Below are positions 3,151 to 63,744 of a stretch of DNA of 64,000 nt, one piece after another. Positions within the stretch are counted from its first letter, which is position 1; the number at the start of each line of letters is the position of its first letter. A program made the translations under genes and the position numbers. The notes beneath the pieces are model-generated. The model worked only from the letters and a program-made list of their open reading frames with translations, did no database searches and had not been told where the DNA came from. The stretch is taken from the NCBI GenBank assembly GCA_963711565.1, contig CAVQEQ010000003.1, positions 960,001 through 1,024,000 on the forward strand, read 5' to 3'. This DNA comes from an uncultured delta proteobacterium. GTDB taxonomy: Bacteria; Desulfobacterota; Binatia; Binatales; Binataceae.

Positions 3151-3227
3151 GGCGGGGTGGAGCAGTCTGGTAGCTCGCCGGGCTCATAACCCGGAGGTCG
3201 AAGGTTCAAATCCTTCCCCCGCAACCA
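3151..3227 (+). tRNA. tRNA-Met(CAT), initiator type
   Basis: 77 nt, closely resembles bacterial tRNA-fMet; three consecutive G-C pairs in the anticodon stem, CAT anticodon, unpaired 1:72, encoded CCA. Confidence 0.97.
3183..3227 (+). repeat. attL core: 45-bp direct repeat (tRNA 3' half)
   Basis: CTCATAACCCGGAGGTCGAAGGTTCAAATCCTTCCCCCGCAACCA is identical at 54883-54927. Confidence 0.95.
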
Positions 3228-50057: not shown

Positions 50058-52790
50058 ATGCTGGTAATGTCGAAAGGCGCGCTCAGTGTAGGCCAGGCCG
50101 AGACCTACTATCAGGAGAAGTACTCCGAGGACGACTACTATACCGAGTCCCACCGCGTCGCCGGCGAGTGGTCCGGGAAAGCGGCCGAGATCCTCGGGCT
50201 GAGTGGGACCGTCAGCGAGGAAGACTTTCGGACCATCTTGCGCGGAACGAGACCCGGTAGCGGCGAAGTGCTTGTCAGCCCCGCCGCCGGCCGGGACGAA
50301 CGCCGCGCAGGTTGGGATGCGACTTTCAATGCGCCCAAGTCAGTCAGCATCCAGGCGCTCGTTGGCGAAGATTCGCGCCTGCTAGAGGCGCATCGGCGTG
50401 CGGTCGAGTTCGCACTCTCGGAACTTGAAAAGTTCGCACAGGCGCGCCGCCATCGCGGACAGGAGTGGGTTACCACTGGCAACTTCGTTGCGGCCCGCTT
50501 CGAGCACATCGCCGCGCGGCCATCGGAGACCGGGACCCAGGACGGCTACGGCCCCGACCCTCATCTCCACACGCACGTCGTAATCGCCAACATGACGCTT
50601 CGGCCGGACGGCATGTGGCGGAGTCTCGACCCCGTCGAGATCTATCGCAGCCAGAGCTTCACGACCGCGGTTTACCGCTCGGAACTTGGCCGCGAGGTCC
50701 AAGCGCTCGGATATCAAATCAGCGTAACCGCGGCCGACGGACGCTGGGAGCTGCAAGGATACACGCGCGAACAGGTAATGGCGTTTTCCCGCAGACGCCA
50801 AGACATCGAAGCACTTCTGAATCGCCAAAACTCGACCGGAGCGGCAGCGGCCCAAATCGCCGCCCATCAAAGCCGCCTCGCCAAAGAAAAGCGCAACGAA
50901 AATGAGCTGCGCGCGGAATGGAAGGCGCGCGCTCATGACAATCGAATCGCACTCGCCGAGATTTCGGAACGCGCGCTCGCGCGCGGCCCCTCGCAGGCGG
51001 TTTCTCCGGCCGCGATCGAGGAGGCGCTCAGCTTCAGCGTAGCTCACAACACCGAACGCGAAGCCGTTACTGACCGGCGCGCTCTGGAACGTACCGCTCT
51101 TCAGTACGCAATGGGAATCGCCGATCTGGTGGGTGTGCGGCGCGAGACCGGCCTTCGGGAATCACGTGGCGATCTAATTGCTCTTGGAACTTCGCCTTCG
51201 TCTCCGGCGATTGCGTACACCACGCCCGAGATGGTGGCGCTGGAGCGTGAGAATCTCGAACTCATGCGCGCCGGCAGAGGGCGCGCCCAGTCAATCACTA
51301 CCGAACAGCGCGCGCGTAGTTGGGCAGCGGGCCGCTCACTATCCGCCGAACAGGTGCAGGCAGCAACGCTGACACTGACCGCGACTGATTGGCTTACCGC
51401 GATCGAAGGTCGCGCAGGCGCAGCGAAGACCACCACGGTCGGAGCGCTTAACGAGTTCGCTGACAGCACTGGCTACACTGTACGCGGTTTCGCTCCGACC
51501 ACGCGCGCCGTAAAAGCGCTCTCCGAAGCCGGCATCCGGTCCAGAACAGTGGCGAGTCTGCTCGCAAGCCCGCTTCCTGATCGGGCACCCAAAGAGCTGT
51601 GGATCATCGACGAGTCGAGCCTGCTCGGTACTCGCCAGATGAACGCGCTGCTGCACAAGGCGCGAGAGGCCGGGGTCGGTCGGGTCGTCTTCGTCGGCGA
51701 CCAGCGCCAGCATCACGCCATCGAGGCTGGCCGGCCCATCCAACAGATGCAGCGAGCAGGCATGTCCGTCGCGCGATTGGAGACCATCCGTCGCCAAGTC
51801 GATCCCGGATTGCGTGAAGCGGTCACGCTCGCGTCGCGTGGAGAGGTCGGACAGGCAATCGCACTCCTCGAGCGGCAGGGCCGCGTCCGCGAGATCGTAG
51901 ATCCGAATGAGCGCCACGCAGCGATCGCGCGCGAATACCTTGCTGCGCACGAAGCAGGTGAAAAGGTTCTCGTCGTCAGCCCGGCCAACGATGAGCGCCG
52001 CCAGTTGAACGCGGCAATTCGCGCGGCCCTCAAGGAACGCGGGCACATCAGCTCCGACGGACGAGAACAGATCGTGCTCGTGAAACGCGAGCTGACCCGG
52101 CCTCAGCGTAAACGCGGACAGAGTTACGAGGTCGGCGACGTGCTCCGATTCCGGCGGGGAAGTGCGCGCCTGGGCATCGATCGCGGAAGTTACGCCCAGA
52201 TCGAAGCAATCGATCCGGAACGGAACCAAATGGTGGTACGAGATGAAGGAGGAAAAGCTGTCAGCTACGATCCCTCGCGGCTGTCCGGAGTCGAGGTCTT
52301 CCGTCAGGAGCGCCGCGTTCTCGGCGCAGGCGACCGGATTCAATTCCGCGCGCCGGATCGTGCCCTTGGCGTCGCTAATGGAGAGTTTGCGACAATCATT
52401 GCCATCGACGATCACAGAGCGCGGCTGCGCATCGACAACGAGCGCCAGATCGGCGCGGCAATCGCACGTCTGAAGCACATCGACTACGGCTACGCCTCGA
52501 CCTCCCACTCAAGCCAAGGCGCCACGGTTGATCGTGTGATCGCTAATATCGATACGCTCCGCTCGGCTGAACTCGTGAACCGCAAGCAGTTCTACGTCTC
52601 AATCAGCCGGGCGCGCCACGCAGCGACGATCTACACCGACCACCGCTCGGCCCTCCAGCACGCGGTCAGCCGCACCCGCGAGAAGTCGATCGCCTTGGAG
52701 CGCCTCGATCTAAACGCGGGACGAGACATCACGATGGTTCCAGAACCACGCCGCCAGACCATCACGCCGAGCCACGGAATTCGCAGGTGA
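50058..52790 (+). CDS. MOBF relaxase-helicase (TrwC/TraI-like)
   Basis: YY...DDYY, DATFNAPKSVS, DPHLHTH, GRAGAAKTT, IIDESS, HSSQGAT, YVSISR. Confidence 0.95.
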   Translation: MLVMSKGALSVGQAETYYQEKYSEDDYYTESHRVAGEWSGKAAEILGLSGTVSEEDFRTILRGTRPGSGEVLVSPAAGRDERRAGWDATFNAPKSVSIQALVGEDSRLLEAHRRAVEFALSELEKFAQARRHRGQEWVTTGNFVAARFEHIAARPSETGTQDGYGPDPHLHTHVVIANMTLRPDGMWRSLDPVEIYRSQSFTTAVYRSELGREVQALGYQISVTAADGRWELQGYTREQVMAFSRRRQDIEALLNRQNSTGAAAAQIAAHQSRLAKEKRNENELRAEWKARAHDNRIALAEISERALARGPSQAVSPAAIEEALSFSVAHNTEREAVTDRRALERTALQYAMGIADLVGVRRETGLRESRGDLIALGTSPSSPAIAYTTPEMVALERENLELMRAGRGRAQSITTEQRARSWAAGRSLSAEQVQAATLTLTATDWLTAIEGRAGAAKTTTVGALNEFADSTGYTVRGFAPTTRAVKALSEAGIRSRTVASLLASPLPDRAPKELWIIDESSLLGTRQMNALLHKAREAGVGRVVFVGDQRQHHAIEAGRPIQQMQRAGMSVARLETIRRQVDPGLREAVTLASRGEVGQAIALLERQGRVREIVDPNERHAAIAREYLAAHEAGEKVLVVSPANDERRQLNAAIRAALKERGHISSDGREQIVLVKRELTRPQRKRGQSYEVGDVLRFRRGSARLGIDRGSYAQIEAIDPERNQMVVRDEGGKAVSYDPSRLSGVEVFRQERRVLGAGDRIQFRAPDRALGVANGEFATIIAIDDHRARLRIDNERQIGAAIARLKHIDYGYASTSHSSQGATVDRVIANIDTLRSAELVNRKQFYVSISRARHAATIYTDHRSALQHAVSRTREKSIALERLDLNAGRDITMVPEPRRQTITPSHGIRR

Positions 52791-53671: not shown

Positions 53672-54760
53672 ATGGCACGAGTCGGTAGCAGGGATCGCGG
53701 CCTTTTTGAGCGGCCGACGGGTTCCGGAATTTGGTGGATTCGGTATCACGACCTGAACGGAATAGAGCGGCGGGAGAAGGCCGGCCCGAAAGGATTTGCG
53801 CGCAAGCTGTACGAGAAGCGAAAGACTGAAATCCGTGAAGGCCGATACTTCCCACCCGAACGCCGAAGACCGGTGATGTTTGCCGATATCCTCCAAAGCT
53901 ACCAGCGCGCCGCCGAAGCGGAAGGCCGGTCCGAAGCATGGGGTCCAGAACGTTACCGCCGATTGCGAGAGAGGTTCGGCGGCCAACCTGCCGCCTCAGT
54001 TACTCCGGCAGCGGTCGAGGCTTTCCGCGATGAATTGTCGCGCGACCATGCGCCAGCAACCGTCAATCGCCACCTTCAACTCTTGCGCGCCATTTTTCTC
54101 AGAGCGCTCCGTGACGGCAAAGTCGAATCAGCTCCAACTGGCAAGGTCAGATTCTATCGCGAGAACAACAAGCGCGTGCGCTATCTGAGCGATGAGGAGG
54201 AACTCCGGCTCTTCGATGCGTTGCCGAATTGGTTACATCCCCTCGTGACCATCGCGCTCCACACCGGGATGCGCAGAGGAGAGCTGCTCAATCTTTGTTG
54301 GGCCGACGTTGATTTTACTAGCGGGACTATCACGGTCCGCGAACCGAAGTCGGGAGAAAACGAGCACGTCGTTATGAACGATACCGCGAGGCAGACGCTT
54401 CGAGCTCTATGGGAGAAGCGATCAAAAGTCGTCGCGATCAAGCCTCGGGGACAAGACAATTCGGGCGGTTACGTTTTCACCGCACCTGAAGGCGGTTACA
54501 TTCACACTCTCAACCGATACTGGTACCCAGCGCTAGGACGCGCCCAGATCGAATCCTTCCGCTTCCACGACCTGCGACACACCTTCGCCTCGCGCGCTGC
54601 TATGAGCGGCGTCGATCTGTATACTCTACAAGGGCTGATGAGGCACCGAAGTCCACAGATGACGCAACGCTATGCGCACCTGAGCGCGGCTCATCAGCGA
54701 GAGGCCGTTCGGACTCTTGATCGTTGGCGGCAGCGACAAAACGCGGCGTTGCAGAGTTGA
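53672..54760 (+). CDS. int: Tyrosine recombinase / integrase
   Basis: TGMRRGE, K, FHDLRHTFAS, MRH, TQRYAH; adjacent to attR. Confidence 0.96.
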   Translation: MARVGSRDRGLFERPTGSGIWWIRYHDLNGIERREKAGPKGFARKLYEKRKTEIREGRYFPPERRRPVMFADILQSYQRAAEAEGRSEAWGPERYRRLRERFGGQPAASVTPAAVEAFRDELSRDHAPATVNRHLQLLRAIFLRALRDGKVESAPTGKVRFYRENNKRVRYLSDEEELRLFDALPNWLHPLVTIALHTGMRRGELLNLCWADVDFTSGTITVREPKSGENEHVVMNDTARQTLRALWEKRSKVVAIKPRGQDNSGGYVFTAPEGGYIHTLNRYWYPALGRAQIESFRFHDLRHTFASRAAMSGVDLYTLQGLMRHRSPQMTQRYAHLSAAHQREAVRTLDRWRQRQNAALQS

Positions 54761-54882: not shown

Positions 54883-54927
54883 CTCATAACCCGGAGGTCG
54901 AAGGTTCAAATCCTTCCCCCGCAACCA
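54883..54927 (+). repeat. attR core (duplicated tRNA 3' half)
   Basis: Identical to 3183-3227. Confidence 0.95.
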
Positions 54928-55027
54928 TTAGTCTCACTTTTCTCGCCAATCAAATTTGGGCGATTATATACTTGACGTACCGATTTGTGTATAGTTTCGG
55001 GCCAAATGAAAGGGGAGGCCCGAATGT

Positions 55028-56347
55028 ATGCCCGAAACGATTGCGATCAAACCCGCCGATCTTCTGATCGATGAAGAGAATCCGAGGCTCTCACAACCGA
55101 ACGTCGGTCAGCACAAAGCTCAACAAGCGCTAGCCGAACACCAACAGAAAAAGTTAGAGAGATTGGCTCACGACATCCAGCTTTACGGACTCGATCCGTC
55201 ATCGCTGCCGATTGTGATGCCGTATGGAGAGGGCTCCAATCGATACCTTGTTCTCGAAGGTAATCGGCGGCTGCTGGCTCTGAAAGCATTGGAAAATCCA
55301 GACTCGCTAGCGGAAGGACTCAAGCCAAACATACTCAAACAAATCCGCCGCATCAGCCACGCATATCAAGAGAATCCGATTGAGACAGTTCAATGCGTGG
55401 TCGTGGCCAGCCGCGATGAAGCCCGACATTGGATGGAGTTGCGTCACACTGGACTAAACGAAGGGGCTGGGCTGATGGATTGGGGCTCTGACGAAGCGGC
55501 GCGGTTTCGTGCGAGAACCGGCGGTCTAGAAATCCATTCGCAAGCGTTGAACTTCTTGGAGCAGCTCGGTGCCTTGACGCCAGAACTACGCCGAAAAGTT
55601 CCTGCCACAAGCTTCAAACGCCTAATCGGAACGCCAGAGGTTCGCGCGAAACTTGGCGTCGAGGTGTTGGACGGCAAACTGTACCGGCTCGCTGACAAAA
55701 AGCGCATCGCGAAGGCGATGATGTACGTCGTAAACGATCTCGCTTCCGGCGCGACTAAGGTCGGCAAGATATACCTTAGACCCGATCGCATCAAATATGC
55801 GGATGCTCTTCCGAAAGAGATCGTAGTCACGGCGACGACGAAGTCTGGTCATGGCGAGCCGATTGATTCATCGAGTGGTTCGGCGCGTCCGCGAGGAGCG
55901 ACTACGCCGCGCCCTCGTTCGCGTGACAAGTTGATTCCGCGCGATTGCGTTCTCAACACGACTGATCTTCGGTGCCGCGATATTGAGAGTGAATTGCGCC
56001 GATTGAGTCTCACCAATTCAGCGAATGCCGTCAGCGTGCTGTTCAGAGTCTTCATCGAGCTTTGCGCAGACGATTACATTGAGCGGCTCAAGCTGCCTCT
56101 CACGGCAGACGACAGGCTCGTCACCAAATTGCAGATCGCGTCGCACGATTTGGTGACGCGCAACAAACTGACTAAACAGCAAGCTCGCCCCGTAAATCGC
56201 GCAGCGGCCAAAGATTCTTTTCTCGCCCCGTCCGTCAATATCTTTAACGACTACGTTCACAACAAGAACGTGTTTCCGGCGGGCGGCGATCTGCGCGCCT
56301 ACTGGGATAGCTTACAGCCGTTCGTTGTCGCGATGTGGGCACCATGA
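55028..56347 (+). CDS. ParB/Srx-like N-terminal domain protein with helical (possibly HEPN-like) C-terminus
   Basis: LLIDEENPR and VLEGNRRLLALK ParB-like motifs; C-terminal LFRVFIE...FNDYVHN. Confidence 0.7.
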   Translation: MPETIAIKPADLLIDEENPRLSQPNVGQHKAQQALAEHQQKKLERLAHDIQLYGLDPSSLPIVMPYGEGSNRYLVLEGNRRLLALKALENPDSLAEGLKPNILKQIRRISHAYQENPIETVQCVVVASRDEARHWMELRHTGLNEGAGLMDWGSDEAARFRARTGGLEIHSQALNFLEQLGALTPELRRKVPATSFKRLIGTPEVRAKLGVEVLDGKLYRLADKKRIAKAMMYVVNDLASGATKVGKIYLRPDRIKYADALPKEIVVTATTKSGHGEPIDSSSGSARPRGATTPRPRSRDKLIPRDCVLNTTDLRCRDIESELRRLSLTNSANAVSVLFRVFIELCADDYIERLKLPLTADDRLVTKLQIASHDLVTRNKLTKQQARPVNRAAAKDSFLAPSVNIFNDYVHNKNVFPAGGDLRAYWDSLQPFVVAMWAP

Positions 56348-56392
56348 GCGCAGCTATGGCCATGAACAGTTCAATCGGCTAAGTTGCGCGGT

Positions 56393-57451
56393 ATGCCCTT
56401 TTACACGCCCCTCAGATACCCAGGTGGAAAGCGTCGGCTAGCGCACGCGATAATGCTCCTGATCAGGGAGACCGGCTTGAAAGATGTGCAATATGCTGAG
56501 CCGTTTGCTGGCGGCGCGGCTGTCGCTTTGGCGCTTCTCTTTGAAGAATATGCATCGGTAATCCACATCAACGATCTGAGTCGTCCCGTATACGCCCTCT
56601 GGCACGCGGTTCTCAACGATACGAATGAACTGTGTCGTCGAATCGAAAAGTCACGAACCACGATAGCCGAATGGAAACGACAGCGCGCCGTTTATGTGCG
56701 GCGGGATGAAGCTGACCTTCTAGAGTTAGGATTTGCCGCACTCTTCCTGAACCGCACAAACCGTTCGGGAATCATCAACGGGGGTGTCATCGGCGGACAG
56801 AAACAAACCGGAAAATGGGGAATCGACGCGCGGTTCAACAAGCCGGAACTCATACAGCGCATCCGAAAAATCGGTCGGTACAGCAATCGCGTCCGGCTAT
56901 ATCAGTTGGATGCGATTGCGTTTACGGATCGTCTCGCACCCACGCTCGGACGCGATGCGTTTTTTTTCTTCGATCCGCCCTACATGGAAAACGGTCAAGA
57001 CCTCTACTTAAACGACTACAGCGAGGACGATCATCGGCGCTTGGCAGCCCGCGTATTTCAACTCGAACAACCTTGGGTCGTAACTTACGACTATGCCGCA
57101 GTGTCGTCTGGCCTATACTCTTCGCAGCGTCGGATGATTTACGGGTTTCCCTACAGCGCGCAGAATCGGTACAAAGGCAGAGAGGCGATGTTTTTGTCCG
57201 ATCGCCTGACGCTACCGAATACGTGGGACGGATCAAAGCCGATTCTTCTGGCCTCGCCAGATTCGGAGTATCCGTATTATGGTAGGTTATCGAGTATGAA
57301 AACTCATCCTGAAATGGAAGAAGGCCCCAAGGCAGCCGACCGTTTCGTCAATGCATTGAAAACGGTTCTCGCTGTATCCAAAAGCGCGGTTCCCAATCCG
57401 TTCAGGAAGCCACGGCGCAAGAAAAAAAGCCCGACTACTCGCAAGAGCTAG
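56393..57451 (+). CDS. D12-class N6-adenine DNA methyltransferase (Dam-like)
   Basis: PLRYPGGK, EPFAGG, FLNRTNRSG, DPPY. Confidence 0.92.
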   Translation: MPFYTPLRYPGGKRRLAHAIMLLIRETGLKDVQYAEPFAGGAAVALALLFEEYASVIHINDLSRPVYALWHAVLNDTNELCRRIEKSRTTIAEWKRQRAVYVRRDEADLLELGFAALFLNRTNRSGIINGGVIGGQKQTGKWGIDARFNKPELIQRIRKIGRYSNRVRLYQLDAIAFTDRLAPTLGRDAFFFFDPPYMENGQDLYLNDYSEDDHRRLAARVFQLEQPWVVTYDYAAVSSGLYSSQRRMIYGFPYSAQNRYKGREAMFLSDRLTLPNTWDGSKPILLASPDSEYPYYGRLSSMKTHPEMEEGPKAADRFVNALKTVLAVSKSAVPNPFRKPRRKKKSPTTRKS

Positions 57452-57460
57452 CGGGCTTTT
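57425..57460. terminator. Putative bidirectional terminator
   Basis: AAAAGCCCG...CTC-GCAA-GAG...CGGGCTTTT hairpin between the convergent methylase and transposase genes. Confidence 0.55.
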
Positions 57461-57759
57461 CGGCACTGGTTCAGTTTGAATCTTCGTAATATTCTTCGTC
57501 CACAATCCAGGGCCAACCGAAGGTGAATGCGAGCGCTCGCGCGGCCTCTAAACGCTCGGCGAATTTCTGAGCAAGCGGATCAAAGTTCTCATCGTCGTCG
57601 CACGGCGGTGCGCTGCCATACTCTGTATCTTGACCAGCATCGACAAACGCTCGTGACGATCCTTTTTCACTGACCATAGTTCGCCAACGTGGTCTCGTCG
57701 TCATGGAAATTGACCTCGATTCTAGGTTTTTCGTTTGCCTCGGTTTTGTCGCTGGCGCT

Positions 57760-58710
57760 CTAGTTGAGCACTGCGGGAGATGGTTCGATGTCCTTGCCGG
57801 TCAGGTGCTCGTAGGTCAGTCGTTTGTCCGTGATCTGGGCGAGTGCGCGACTGAATCGGTCGAACTCTCCGCCCTTGCGATTGTTGAATCGAAACGCCTG
57901 CTCGTCCAGATAGCGGAACAGATGGAACGGCTCGACGCTGATATACGTTCCCTTCAATCCGCGTTTTAGCAGACTCCAAAAATTCTCGATGCCGTTCGTA
58001 TGTACGTTACCTCGCACGTAGGTTTCAGCGTGATCGATCACGTTATGCACGTACTCGCGATCCAATCCGTGATAGCCAAGCCACGCATCGCTGAAAATAT
58101 ATGAACCGCCTTTAATGTGTTCTCGGACGAAACCTTGAAGTGTCGATGCCTGCGTATTGGCGATGTGGCGTAAGCGAACCTTCTTGGTATTACGATCCAG
58201 CACTCCCATCACGATTGCTTTTCCGGCCCCGCCCGTGCCCGTGATCTTTGCCTTCTTGTTTTTGTGCATGTTGCGGGCGAGGCCACCGATAAAAGATTCG
58301 TCTACTTCAAACTCCCCAGACGCTAGCTCAAACCCGCCATCTTTCAGGGCCATGCGGAGTCGATGAGCCATGAACCATGCGGTCTTTTGCGTGACTCCGA
58401 GATCGCGCGCCAGTTCGCAGGAACTTATCCCATTTCTACAGTTTACGACGAGCCACAGAGCCGGAAGCCACTTATCCAATCCCAAGGGAGAATCTTCAAA
58501 GATCGTTCCGGTCTTGAGAGAGAACTTCGGTTTCGGATGGCCGCTGTAGCACTTCCATACTCGATTCTTCGCCAAGTACGTTAGCTTGATTGAGCCGCAG
58601 TACGGACACTTGACGCCATCCGGCCATCGAAGCTGCATCATGAGCCGCTTGCAGTTCTCGAAATCCTTGAAGTGAATGATCGCTTGTTGAAGGGTGTTGA
58701 TTCCGTCCAT
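57760..58710 (-). CDS. IS1595-family transposase
   Basis: CPYC Zn ribbon, EVDESFIGG, FSD, HTNGIENFWS, YLDEQAFRFN; start may be 58725. Confidence 0.95.
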   Translation of the reverse strand: MDGINTLQQAIIHFKDFENCKRLMMQLRWPDGVKCPYCGSIKLTYLAKNRVWKCYSGHPKPKFSLKTGTIFEDSPLGLDKWLPALWLVVNCRNGISSCELARDLGVTQKTAWFMAHRLRMALKDGGFELASGEFEVDESFIGGLARNMHKNKKAKITGTGGAGKAIVMGVLDRNTKKVRLRHIANTQASTLQGFVREHIKGGSYIFSDAWLGYHGLDREYVHNVIDHAETYVRGNVHTNGIENFWSLLKRGLKGTYISVEPFHLFRYLDEQAFRFNNRKGGEFDRFSRALAQITDKRLTYEHLTGKDIEPSPAVLN

Positions 58711-59417
58711 GCTCCAAACGTACACGATTCATCGTGGTACGTCAAGTATATAATCGCCCAAATTTGCTTGCCCCACCTGTCTAGGTACGCGAGCTGCTCG
58801 ACTGGACGCCTGATCAGCGGGCCGTGGCCGCGGCCCACTGGATACCCAATCGGGATCGCCGCCGCCGTGTACCATGGATCGGGAATCGCCAGCAGCTTGC
58901 GCACCTCCGGCTCGCATTCGCATAGCAGCGTCGTCAGCACGCAGCCGAGTCCTTCGGCGCGGCACGCGAGCAACAGGTTCTCGACCGCGGTGTAGACCGA
59001 TCCGCCGCCGACCACCGATACGCGCTCCTGCTTCGCGTCGGTGATCGCCATATTTTTAGGATTGAAGCAGAACACCGCGACGACCGGGGTCTCGCCGAAA
59101 TGCGCGCCGAGGTAATCGCCCGCCGCCAGCGTGCGCTCGGCCCGCGCGCGCACTTCCGCCGGCGCGCTCGCCGGAATCGCACCACGATATTGCTTCGAGT
59201 AGGCGATCCATCGCTCGTTGTAGAGCTTGCCGAGCGGCTCCTTCAGCGCGCGATCTTTCACGACGACTATCCGCCACGGCTGGACGTTGCCGCCGGTCGG
59301 CGCCCAGGTTGCTGCTTCGAGCACGCGATGTAGCACGTCGTCCGGAATCGCATCGGGCCGCAATCGCCTGACCGCGCGCAACGTGCGCATCGTTTCGTAG
59401 ATTCCCATTTCCGCCAT
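58638..59417 (-). CDS. Nitroreductase-family protein with 40-aa IS-derived C-terminal extension
   Basis: RAVRR, APTGGNVQPW, NLLLACRAEGLG; native end ...WGKQI* is reconstructable across the TSD. Confidence 0.9.
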   Translation of the reverse strand: MAEMGIYETMRTLRAVRRLRPDAIPDDVLHRVLEAATWAPTGGNVQPWRIVVVKDRALKEPLGKLYNERWIAYSKQYRGAIPASAPAEVRARAERTLAAGDYLGAHFGETPVVAVFCFNPKNMAITDAKQERVSVVGGGSVYTAVENLLLACRAEGLGCVLTTLLCECEPEVRKLLAIPDPWYTAAAIPIGYPVGRGHGPLIRRPVEQLAYLDRWGKQIWAIIYLTYHDESCTFGAWTESTPFNKRSFTSRISRTASGS

Positions 59418-63150: not shown

Positions 63151-63744
63151 CTACAGAGTGATTTCCTCATCGAGAAACTCTTCCACACCAGCGCCATTAA
63201 GCACAACTTCACTGAGAGCGATTGACCGTTCTTTAGCTTCGCGGTCTCTCATGCGATCCGCCAAAAATTCGAAGTCTGAGAAAAGGGAAGTGTCCCTCTT
63301 GCGTCCGCGCAACCAAGTGACATACGACCTACATGCAGCCCACCATCCTTTGACGTAGTAGCTGAAGGTATCGTAGGTCAGTTGTTCGTCGACGCGCCCT
63401 TGACGAAATAGCGCTCCGAGGTCTTCGAAAAAGTTGAGTACATCTTCCTGTATCTGCTCGTTGGAACCGTTGCCTTTCAGGTGAAAAGCGAGTGCGTGAC
63501 GACTTTGCTTCAAATGATTGTTGTCGAACCTCTCGGCCATCGTGAAGTAAAAGCGCAGAGCAATTTCCTCGCGAGAAATCTGGCGCTGAGCTTCGATGGT
63601 CCGGTCAACGGCGCCTAGCGTGTCTTTGCTTTGCCTTTTGGAAAAGTAAAACTGTATCCAGAACTGGACAAATGCGATTACCGCTAGCGCGATTGTGGCT
63701 ATACCGGTCCACCATTCCATAGCGTTCCCTGTGGAGTCTGCCAA
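63151..63744 (-). CDS. Membrane-anchored hypothetical protein (DUF4760-like)
   Basis: N-terminal TM; VLNFFEDLG and FEFLA motifs. Confidence 0.55.
   Translation of the reverse strand: MADSTGNAMEWWTGIATIALAVIAFVQFWIQFYFSKRQSKDTLGAVDRTIEAQRQISREEIALRFYFTMAERFDNNHLKQSRHALAFHLKGNGSNEQIQEDVLNFFEDLGALFRQGRVDEQLTYDTFSYYVKGWWAACRSYVTWLRGRKRDTSLFSDFEFLADRMRDREAKERSIALSEVVLNGAGVEEFLDEEITL

Follow-up and report, generated by a model that had tools for sequence, protein, structure and literature searches.

We analyzed a stretch of 64,000 nucleotides (hereafter the window) from contig CAVQEQ010000003.1 of an uncultured member of the Binataceae (Desulfobacterota; assembly GCA_963711565.1), near one end of which a preliminary description had placed an IS1595 transporter element carrying a candidate defence system. 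The element occupies positions 54959-58758 (3800 bp), all its open reading frames (ORFs) being open and intact, and it encloses a transposase convergent with two cargo genes, here called genes A and B (table 1). We regard it as practically certain that this cargo is a PD-lambda-5 defence system and that its carrier is an intact IS1595 transporter. The transposase exceeds the cut-offs of PF12762 (124 bits), PF12760 (37 bits), and NF033547 (171 bits). The terminal inverted repeats (TIRs) are identical at 23 of 23 positions inward from both ends, identity ceasing at base 24, and the same palindromic 8-mer, CAAATTTG, stands beside each of them as a target site duplication (TSD). The true boundary is fixed by empty sites: in all 11 loci of the same genus with an alignment at the right flank, the element is missing and the target stands in a single copy. 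The 35-bp inverted repeat called at the ends by a repeat finder is reported because the target 8-mer is itself palindromic; we rejected it as the true end, given that the empty sites place this 8-mer in the target. The family, TIRs, and TSD given in the preliminary description are all confirmed. Its proposal of a recent insertion is also borne out, the intact ends suggesting a recent move and the same-genus genomes supplying the empty sites. The element is single-copy in its genome and has a GC content of 53%, compared with 60-61% for the genome's four contigs.

Table 1. Features of the IS1595 Element and Its Borders (window coordinates)
Feature	Position	Strand	Evidence
Left TSD copy, 8 bp, palindromic	54951..54958		Flank comparison, empty sites
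Left TIR, 23 bp, perfect	54959..54981	+	Repeat comparison
PD-lambda-5A (gene A), 439 aa	55028..56347	+	PADLOC E 1.2e-118, full length; model and fold searches; conservation
Predicted leaderless methylase promoter, likely the methylase's own target site	56357..56385	+	Promoter conservation
PD-lambda-5B (gene B), D12-class amino-methyltransferase, 352 aa including fused tail	56393..57451	+	PADLOC E 8.8e-110; PF02086 above cut-off; invariant YPGGK and DPPY
51-codon IS-resident small gene, in frame as methylase C-terminal tail	57296..57451	+	Metagenome and GTDB loci
IS1595-family DDE transposase with Zn ribbon, 316 aa from ATG	57760..58710	-	PF12762, PF12760, and NF033547 above cut-off
Right TIR, 23 bp	58736..58758	-	Repeat comparison
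Right TSD copy, overlapping the last codons of a nitroreductase-family gene	58759..58766		Flank comparison, empty sites

The Cargo Is a PD-lambda-5 System

Searches of the PADLOC profiles assigned gene A to PD-Lambda-5_A (PDLC04008, residues 1-437), all 25 of the best families shown being PD-Lambda-5_A, and gave PD-Lambda-5_B (PDLC04018) as the best match of gene B, which lies 45 nt downstream on the same strand (gap 56348-56392). PD-lambda-5 is listed as "ParB/HEPN, methyltransferase" in Table S1 of Vassallo 2022 (PMC9519451), having been validated in Escherichia coli with the ECOR7 proteins RCQ13837.1 and RCQ13838.1. According to that report, it was cloned in a host devoid of the mrr region and affected all but one of ten phages, T-even phages most strongly; HHpred returned ParBc at 96% and weak matches to the HEPN clan, and the text describes the system as a compacted restriction-modification (RM) plus abortive infection (Abi) system. 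The preliminary description had proposed a methylation-linked defence module and had allowed that the pair might belong to an already characterised system: the defence module is supported, its novelty is not, as both genes are those of PD-lambda-5.

The published system and the present one share two genes in the same order, ParB/HEPN and then D12-class methyltransferase, with full-length profile matches. They differ in that the present pair is borne by an IS1595 element and the published one by a prophage, and in that the partner is shorter here (439 aa) and the methylase, set off by a gap of 45 nt, is preceded by a predicted promoter of its own and extended by a fused tail of 51 aa derived from the insertion sequence (IS). 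Transporter IS are likewise a known class, described as confined to IS1595 and IS66 (TnCentral; 10.1101/2021.05.26.445724), and the present element has their usual constituents (one DDE transposase, TIRs, short TSD, and passengers), the difference being that the passengers form a complete two-gene defence system. System and class of carrier are thus both known already, and the cargo does not constitute a new system. As for their pairing, we found no report of PD-lambda-5 on IS1595 in the literature searched by titles and abstract beginnings, a search outside which most subscription journals lie; within the same limits, no mechanistic study of PD-lambda-5, its target motif, or its complex was found.

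A Lineage of PD-lambda-5-Carrying IS1595 Elements

By searching GTDB genomes with an alignment, a single-protein query having given nothing, we obtained 207 confirmed matches to gene A, of which the best 80 were examined as loci; this sample is biased to close relatives and does not give a family-wide rate. A methylase homolog adjoins gene A in 74 of the 80, convergently in 2 of these, which confirms the conservation of the pair; of the remaining six loci, four contain a truncated A and two break off at the end of a contig. We found an IS1595 transposase in 22 of the 80 loci; 15 are complete elements, with both ends and an identical 8-bp TSD around the pair. These complete elements come from Acidobacteriota, Chloroflexota, Gemmatimonadota, Planctomycetota, Rhodothermota, and one unclassified genome, and their A proteins are 30-61% identical to the query; a further complete element, of 3816 bp, is found on a named Mesorhizobium plasmid. 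Their targets are mostly a C, six A/T-rich bases, and a G, and two layouts exist, with the transposase either convergent with the cargo or upstream on the same strand. Judged from these sequences, the PD-lambda-5-carrying IS1595 elements form a lineage.

A quick-search tree of 71 A proteins, from which 10 truncated or interrupted loci were left out, is poorly resolved near the query. Its IS-borne rows are clustered yet interleaved with IS-free ones, and the number of captures is not countable from it. Other copies of the pair are found in temperate phages and on plasmids. Among 40 relatives of the host, three have a strong match to B, and a DNA search of 40 relatives gave no cargo-gene match among the matches listed, with two weak matches besides. 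Two related loci differ in composition. Between the methylase and the transposase of one element (L002:7452-8479) lie a second HEPN gene (RiboL-PSP-HEPN) and an ORF of 91 aa, so that defence cargo can be stacked. In the other (L010:4853-7782), the pair lies within different inverted repeats flanked by an 8-bp duplication, with no transposase match, and may be a nonautonomous cargo element.

Gene A Encodes a ParB/Srx-HEPN Protein

The 439-aa ORF announced in the preliminary description is open and intact, and carries the named motifs DEENPR, EGNRR, RVFIE, and NDYVHN. In the predicted model, with the help of fold searches, we distinguish a ParB/Srx-fold domain (residues ~1-165), a helical middle (~165-265), a flexible linker, and a HEPN-fold domain (~299-439). 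Because mean pLDDT is 79.5 and pTM 0.36, the domains are reliable and their arrangement is not. The best Foldseek matches are Noc/ParB proteins (E 3e-4 to 1e-3); with VIA-align, the N-terminus matches KorB-CTP (Z 8.4, rmsd 3.3, 99 aligned) as well as PadC and sulfiredoxin, and residues 310-439 match the HEPN structure 2hsb (Z 8.2, rmsd 3.1, 116 aligned). The earlier view of a ParB-like and HEPN-like partner is thus supported, with moderate Z-scores. Gene A matched no Pfam or NCBIfam family, including PD-(D/E)xK and HNH nucleases, the middle domain being barely probed by fold search; when 56 A homologs were compared with Pfam, no family was matched by more than one of them, and a search of PDB sequences with the A profile returned chance matches only and no solved relative.

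The A family has 4552 representatives at E ≤0.001. Conservation was assessed on the query and 137 of the 150 listed representatives (138 rows; length 420-560; median identity ~35%). N79, R80, R81, H140, W152, and R198 are 100% conserved, and N18/R20 and G78 99%, so that both an NPR and a GxRR-type motif are found on the ParB fold; motifs and predicted fold together identify a ParB/Srx domain of the nucleotide-binding type. In the C-terminal half, H411, R340, and E322 are 99% conserved and position 407 is N or H in 97%. The canonical HEPN motif Rx4-6H was not found, R340 and E344 being conserved elsewhere. HEPN families that keep the His and lose the Arg are described by Anantharaman 2013 (PMC3710099), and RNase activity of this domain appears plausible from the conserved residues, not assured. 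The architecture resembles that of PrrC/RloC and of the ParB-HEPN proteins of R-M neighborhoods treated in the same article, in which an NTPase-like domain is joined to HEPN and linked to a methylase. It differs from PrrC/RloC in that a ParB/Srx fold replaces the ABC ATPase, HsdR/HsdS are absent, and Rx4-6H lacks its Arg.

The Methylase and the Site ahead of It

The methylase scores above the PF02086 cut-off and its YPGGK and DPPY motifs are invariant, in agreement with the D12 fold class given in the preliminary description. The Dam-type N6-adenine specificity proposed with it is probably wrong: the Dam model TIGR00571 gives 58.1 bits, below its cut-off of 114.85, and the promoter region points to TGGCCA. 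This hexamer stands at the -35 position (56357-56362) of a promoter-like signal, followed by a 17-nt spacer, a -10-like hexamer (56380-56385), and 7 nt to the ATG. Since the methylase has a promoter-like signal of its own, the convergent two-gene operon of the earlier account holds for the convergent transposase and is probably not one simple operon. In three loci (L015, L037, and L178) the methylase is convergent with gene A and TGGCCA still precedes its start, which fits an independent promoter.

Seven of the GTDB loci have no usable methylase start. In those at ≥55% identity, TGGCCA lies 20-45 nt ahead of the methylase start in 35 of 42, nine control palindromes being found at the same position in at most 1 of 42. 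The background frequency is 1.9% (310 of 16049 windows of 50 nt); ahead of gene A, 2 of 66 loci have TGGCCA. With metagenome loci added, it is present in 46 of 54 close sequences, and in 39 instances a YAnnnT box follows after a spacer of 17 nt. The hexamer likewise stands ahead of 7 of 16 distant named methylases (36-48% identity; records of E. coli, Citrobacter, Kosakonia, Pseudomonas, Streptococcus, and Clostridium), including some paired with AAA/OLD ATPases, and hence travels with the methylase and not with gene A. In eight of our loci (L181, L185, L186, L187, L188, L189, L192, and L193) a member of the methylase family stands beside AAA/OLD-like ATPases and not beside ParB/HEPN, with TGGCCA upstream in four; as this sequence survey indicates, the methylase is a modular part. 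Its presumed DNA-recognition loop is nearly invariant across phyla. Two other approaches added little: depletion of TGGCCA in the host genome is mild (0.80 of expected, like AGGCCT at 0.82) and uninformative, and a generic promoter scan, with 3 sites where chance would give 2.3, did not pick up the promoter of the methylase.

Several TGGCCA methyltransferases have been reported. In Acinetobacter baumannii A118, the enzyme H0N27_12600, annotated as "DNA adenine methylase," makes N4-methylcytosine (m4C) in TGGCCA (PMC10287943); in S. algae, the type II-alpha enzyme E1N14_009720 was assigned to m4C in the same motif (PMC8340859); and a II-alpha enzyme of Chania was predicted for TGGCCA (PMC5005818). 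We liken the present methylase to the A. baumannii and S. algae enzymes by annotation and motif, with the difference that H0N27_12600 is described as an orphan enzyme in the available text. A Paracoccus methylase, Pkon1, belongs to the family, and its paper does not characterize it. CfrBI regulates itself through a recognition site that overlies the -35 element of its methylase promoter (10.64898/2025.12.04.692298). The placement is the same here and would by analogy imply feedback, whereas the CfrBI endonuclease is described as classical and divergent and the ParB/HEPN partner is upstream on the same strand. From the conserved promoter arrangement, TGGCCA is probably the target of the methylase; if so, the mark would be m4C, a conclusion by analogy of which we are somewhat less confident. 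Self-repression is accordingly predicted to act through TGGCCA over the -35 and not through Dam/GATC.

The C-terminal residues 302-352 of the methylase correspond to a separate small gene of IS1595 elements, fused in frame here. We surveyed the best 80 of 204 metagenome loci bearing this gene: 58 have no methylase upstream, 16 have one, and 6 are too short to tell. A convergent transposase lies downstream in 57 of the 80, and all 16 methylase-bearing loci have the small gene fused in frame, an arrangement shared by 14 of the 80 GTDB loci. Fused and unfused settings alike are enriched in a -10-like hexamer 6-8 nt ahead of its ATG (7 nt here), so that the small gene may still give a separate product. 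The small ORF has no match in Pfam or PADLOC, matching unnamed Atlas clusters only, and no copy turned up when 200 other genomes of the phylum were searched.

A Predicted Methylase-ParB Complex

We modeled A together with B residues 1-300, each chain with a 56-row alignment. The complex scored 0.79, compared with 0.00 for the best of three controls, with 100% agreement in contacts between runs and a partner pLDDT of 83. Of 157 solved complexes, 116 reach the mark applied, as do 2 of 215 mismatched pairs; with alignments of our own in use here, this calibration is only rough. Because A has no solved relative by sequence, recall from training is a less likely source of the result. The modeled interface involves residues 8-11, 26-32, 70-72, 86-93, and 114-119 of the ParB domain and a methylase patch at 30-31, 50-55, and 155-166. 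Its residues are largely kept in the alignments, in A (Q28 54/56, R72 56/56, K/R86 55/56) as in B (E52 49/56, Y53 47/56, R166 54/56); in particular, the two sides of the predicted contact A-K86/B-E52 are conserved as K/R in 55 of 56 and as E in 49 of 56. At position 53 of B, Y or H occurs in 5 of the 7 named methylases that pair with ParB and in none of the 8 that pair with AAA proteins, a difference confounded by kinship. The model supports binding of the methylase to the ParB domain of its partner.

Proposed Mechanism and Alternatives

We favor, with a probability of roughly 0.55, a methylation-gated complex in which recognition of unmethylated TGGCCA sets off the ParB/HEPN partner. On entry into a new host, the unmethylated promoter would allow a burst of methylase. 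Methylation of TGGCCA, likelier on N4-cytosine than on N6-adenine, would then protect the chromosome and shut the methylase promoter, as in CfrBI. Methylase molecules docked on the partner's ParB domain would, upon infection, read unmethylated TGGCCA in phage DNA. The ParB/Srx domain would serve as a nucleotide-dependent switch or a nickase, and the HEPN domain would cut RNA by means of a noncanonical site (His411, Asn/His407, and possibly Arg340/Glu344), halting the infection. The IS would spread the module between phyla and gain host protection from it, and perhaps addiction too. A more detailed version combines a self-repressing N4-cytosine TGGCCA methylase, a ParB switch, and an Arg-less HEPN RNase in a two-subunit methylase-guided complex that is the standing cargo of an IS1595 lineage in at least five phyla, its methylase fused to the small IS gene, which would make it one of the smallest self-mobile immune units; taken as a whole, this version is tentative and we would not bet on all its parts.

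Several observations weigh against the methylation-gated complex. The present copy is known from its sequence and from models alone, and the promoter and conservation counts come from related sequences, not from independent events. TGGCCA is absent from 27 of the 31 distant loci (<55% identity; present in 4), many of which have overlapping genes, and from 9 of the 16 distant named methylases. It equals TTGACA at four of six positions and could be merely an inherited -35 box. In P. luminescens, TGGCCA is reported to carry m6A, tentatively from an unrelated hybrid enzyme (PMC6092372), and the link drawn to the A. baumannii and S. algae enzymes is one of annotation and motif. That the same methylase family also partners AAA/OLD ATPases is a further difficulty. 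On the side of gene A, fold Z-scores of ~8 are middling, the top row of VIA-align being Roquin (Z 8.7), and the pTM of the model is low (0.36). The canonical HEPN Arg is absent, position 406 being L, M, or F in 96% of the 138 sequences, and this Arg is stated to be required in KEN and PrrC (Anantharaman 2013, PMC3710099).

The foremost alternative, to which we give about half the credence of the methylation-gated complex or less, is a guard or toxin-antitoxin arrangement. Here, methylase binding would keep ParB/HEPN inactive; release of the HEPN RNase by phage shut-off or by anti-restriction proteins would kill the cell, as with PrrC. Methylation of TGGCCA would do no more than adjust the amount of methylase and would not distinguish self from phage. 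The predicted interface on the ParB domain and the feedback-type promoter that the methylase appears to possess would suit this arrangement. Four of the six methylase-less loci have a truncated partner, the other two lying at a contig edge, as expected if the partner alone is toxic, but lethality without methylase is also expected of the methylation-gated complex. T-even phage DNA is heavily modified. The E. coli system acts best against T-even phages (PMC9519451), which fits poorly with simple reading of a site, and there is precedent in PrrC, which is described as held inactive by an R-M complex (PMC3710099). Conversely, the near constancy of the presumed methylase recognition loop across phyla suggests that one site matters, and the lack of the canonical Arg in the HEPN domain counts against a guard that kills by RNA cleavage.

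This same lack is what one would expect if the system were one of pure restriction, a rather improbable case in which the methylase directs the ParB-fold domain, as a DNA nuclease, to unmethylated TGGCCA, the HEPN domain serves only for dimerization or nucleic-acid binding, and infected cells survive. The ParB-like fold is counted among the endoDNase domains of R-M systems by Anantharaman 2013 (PMC3710099), and SspE is among the fold matches of A (Z 5.5). Yet H411, R340, E344, and N/H407 are 97-99% conserved at ~35% median identity, suggesting catalysis, and the discoverers read PD-lambda-5 as RM plus Abi in the text available (PMC9519451). Least probable of all, and by a wide distance from the favored complex, is inactive or selfish cargo, that is, an addiction module or a passive passenger giving this host no antiphage benefit. 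Our knowledge of this copy comes from its sequence, the family is patchy (a strong B match in 3 of 40 relatives), and a sister element in the same genome bears unrelated cargo, all of which such a view would accommodate. It sits badly with the integrity of both ORFs and of all conserved residues and with the persistence of the pair in 15 complete elements whose A proteins are only 30-61% identical.

PD-lambda-5 was among the broadest protectors in the 2022 E. coli screen (PMC9519451). The present locus and its relatives yield three testable predictions for it, namely the TGGCCA target, the residues of the methylase-ParB interface, and a noncanonical HEPN site. They also indicate that simple insertion sequences, besides prophages and islands, carry whole defence systems between phyla. 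If the TGGCCA target is true, many proteins annotated as "DNA adenine methylase" would be cytosine methylases.

Insertion Site, Neighborhood, and Other Elements of the Genome

The insertion displaced the stop codon of the nitroreductase-family gene (window 58638-59417, minus strand), which now reads 40 additional codons from the right end of the element. The right TIR contributes a -35-like hexamer, 17 nt ahead of a -10-like hexamer, close upstream of the transposase start (58741-58713, minus strand). In soil runs of one study, there are contigs that agree with the element over long portions with zero differences; they possibly derive from the source sample. Four soil runs showed no joint across the element.

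To the left of the element, a 51.7-kb island (window 3183-54927) is integrated at a tRNA-Met gene (3151-3227), with a 45-bp att repeat (54883-54927). Genes at its end specify a tyrosine integrase (53672-54760), an HTH excisionase-like protein, a TrwC/MobF relaxase-helicase (50058-52790), and a TrwB coupling protein. We rejected the possibility that the element is part of this island, as it lies 31 bp outside the att repeat. Elsewhere in the genome, a sister IS1595 element (G000:C1:169267-173081, L199) has a transposase 69% identical to the present one, related ends, and an 8-bp duplication; it carries five unrelated ORFs, one of them DUF7689 and the other four unassigned, and a divergent small ORF facing the transposase. 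Two further IS1595 transposases were found, one at C1:758444-759418 and one at C4:1323440-1326347 (L200), the latter in an element with clear ends and an unassigned passenger of 215 aa. Near the end of the window lies a low-GC DUF4760 gene (63151-63744, minus strand).

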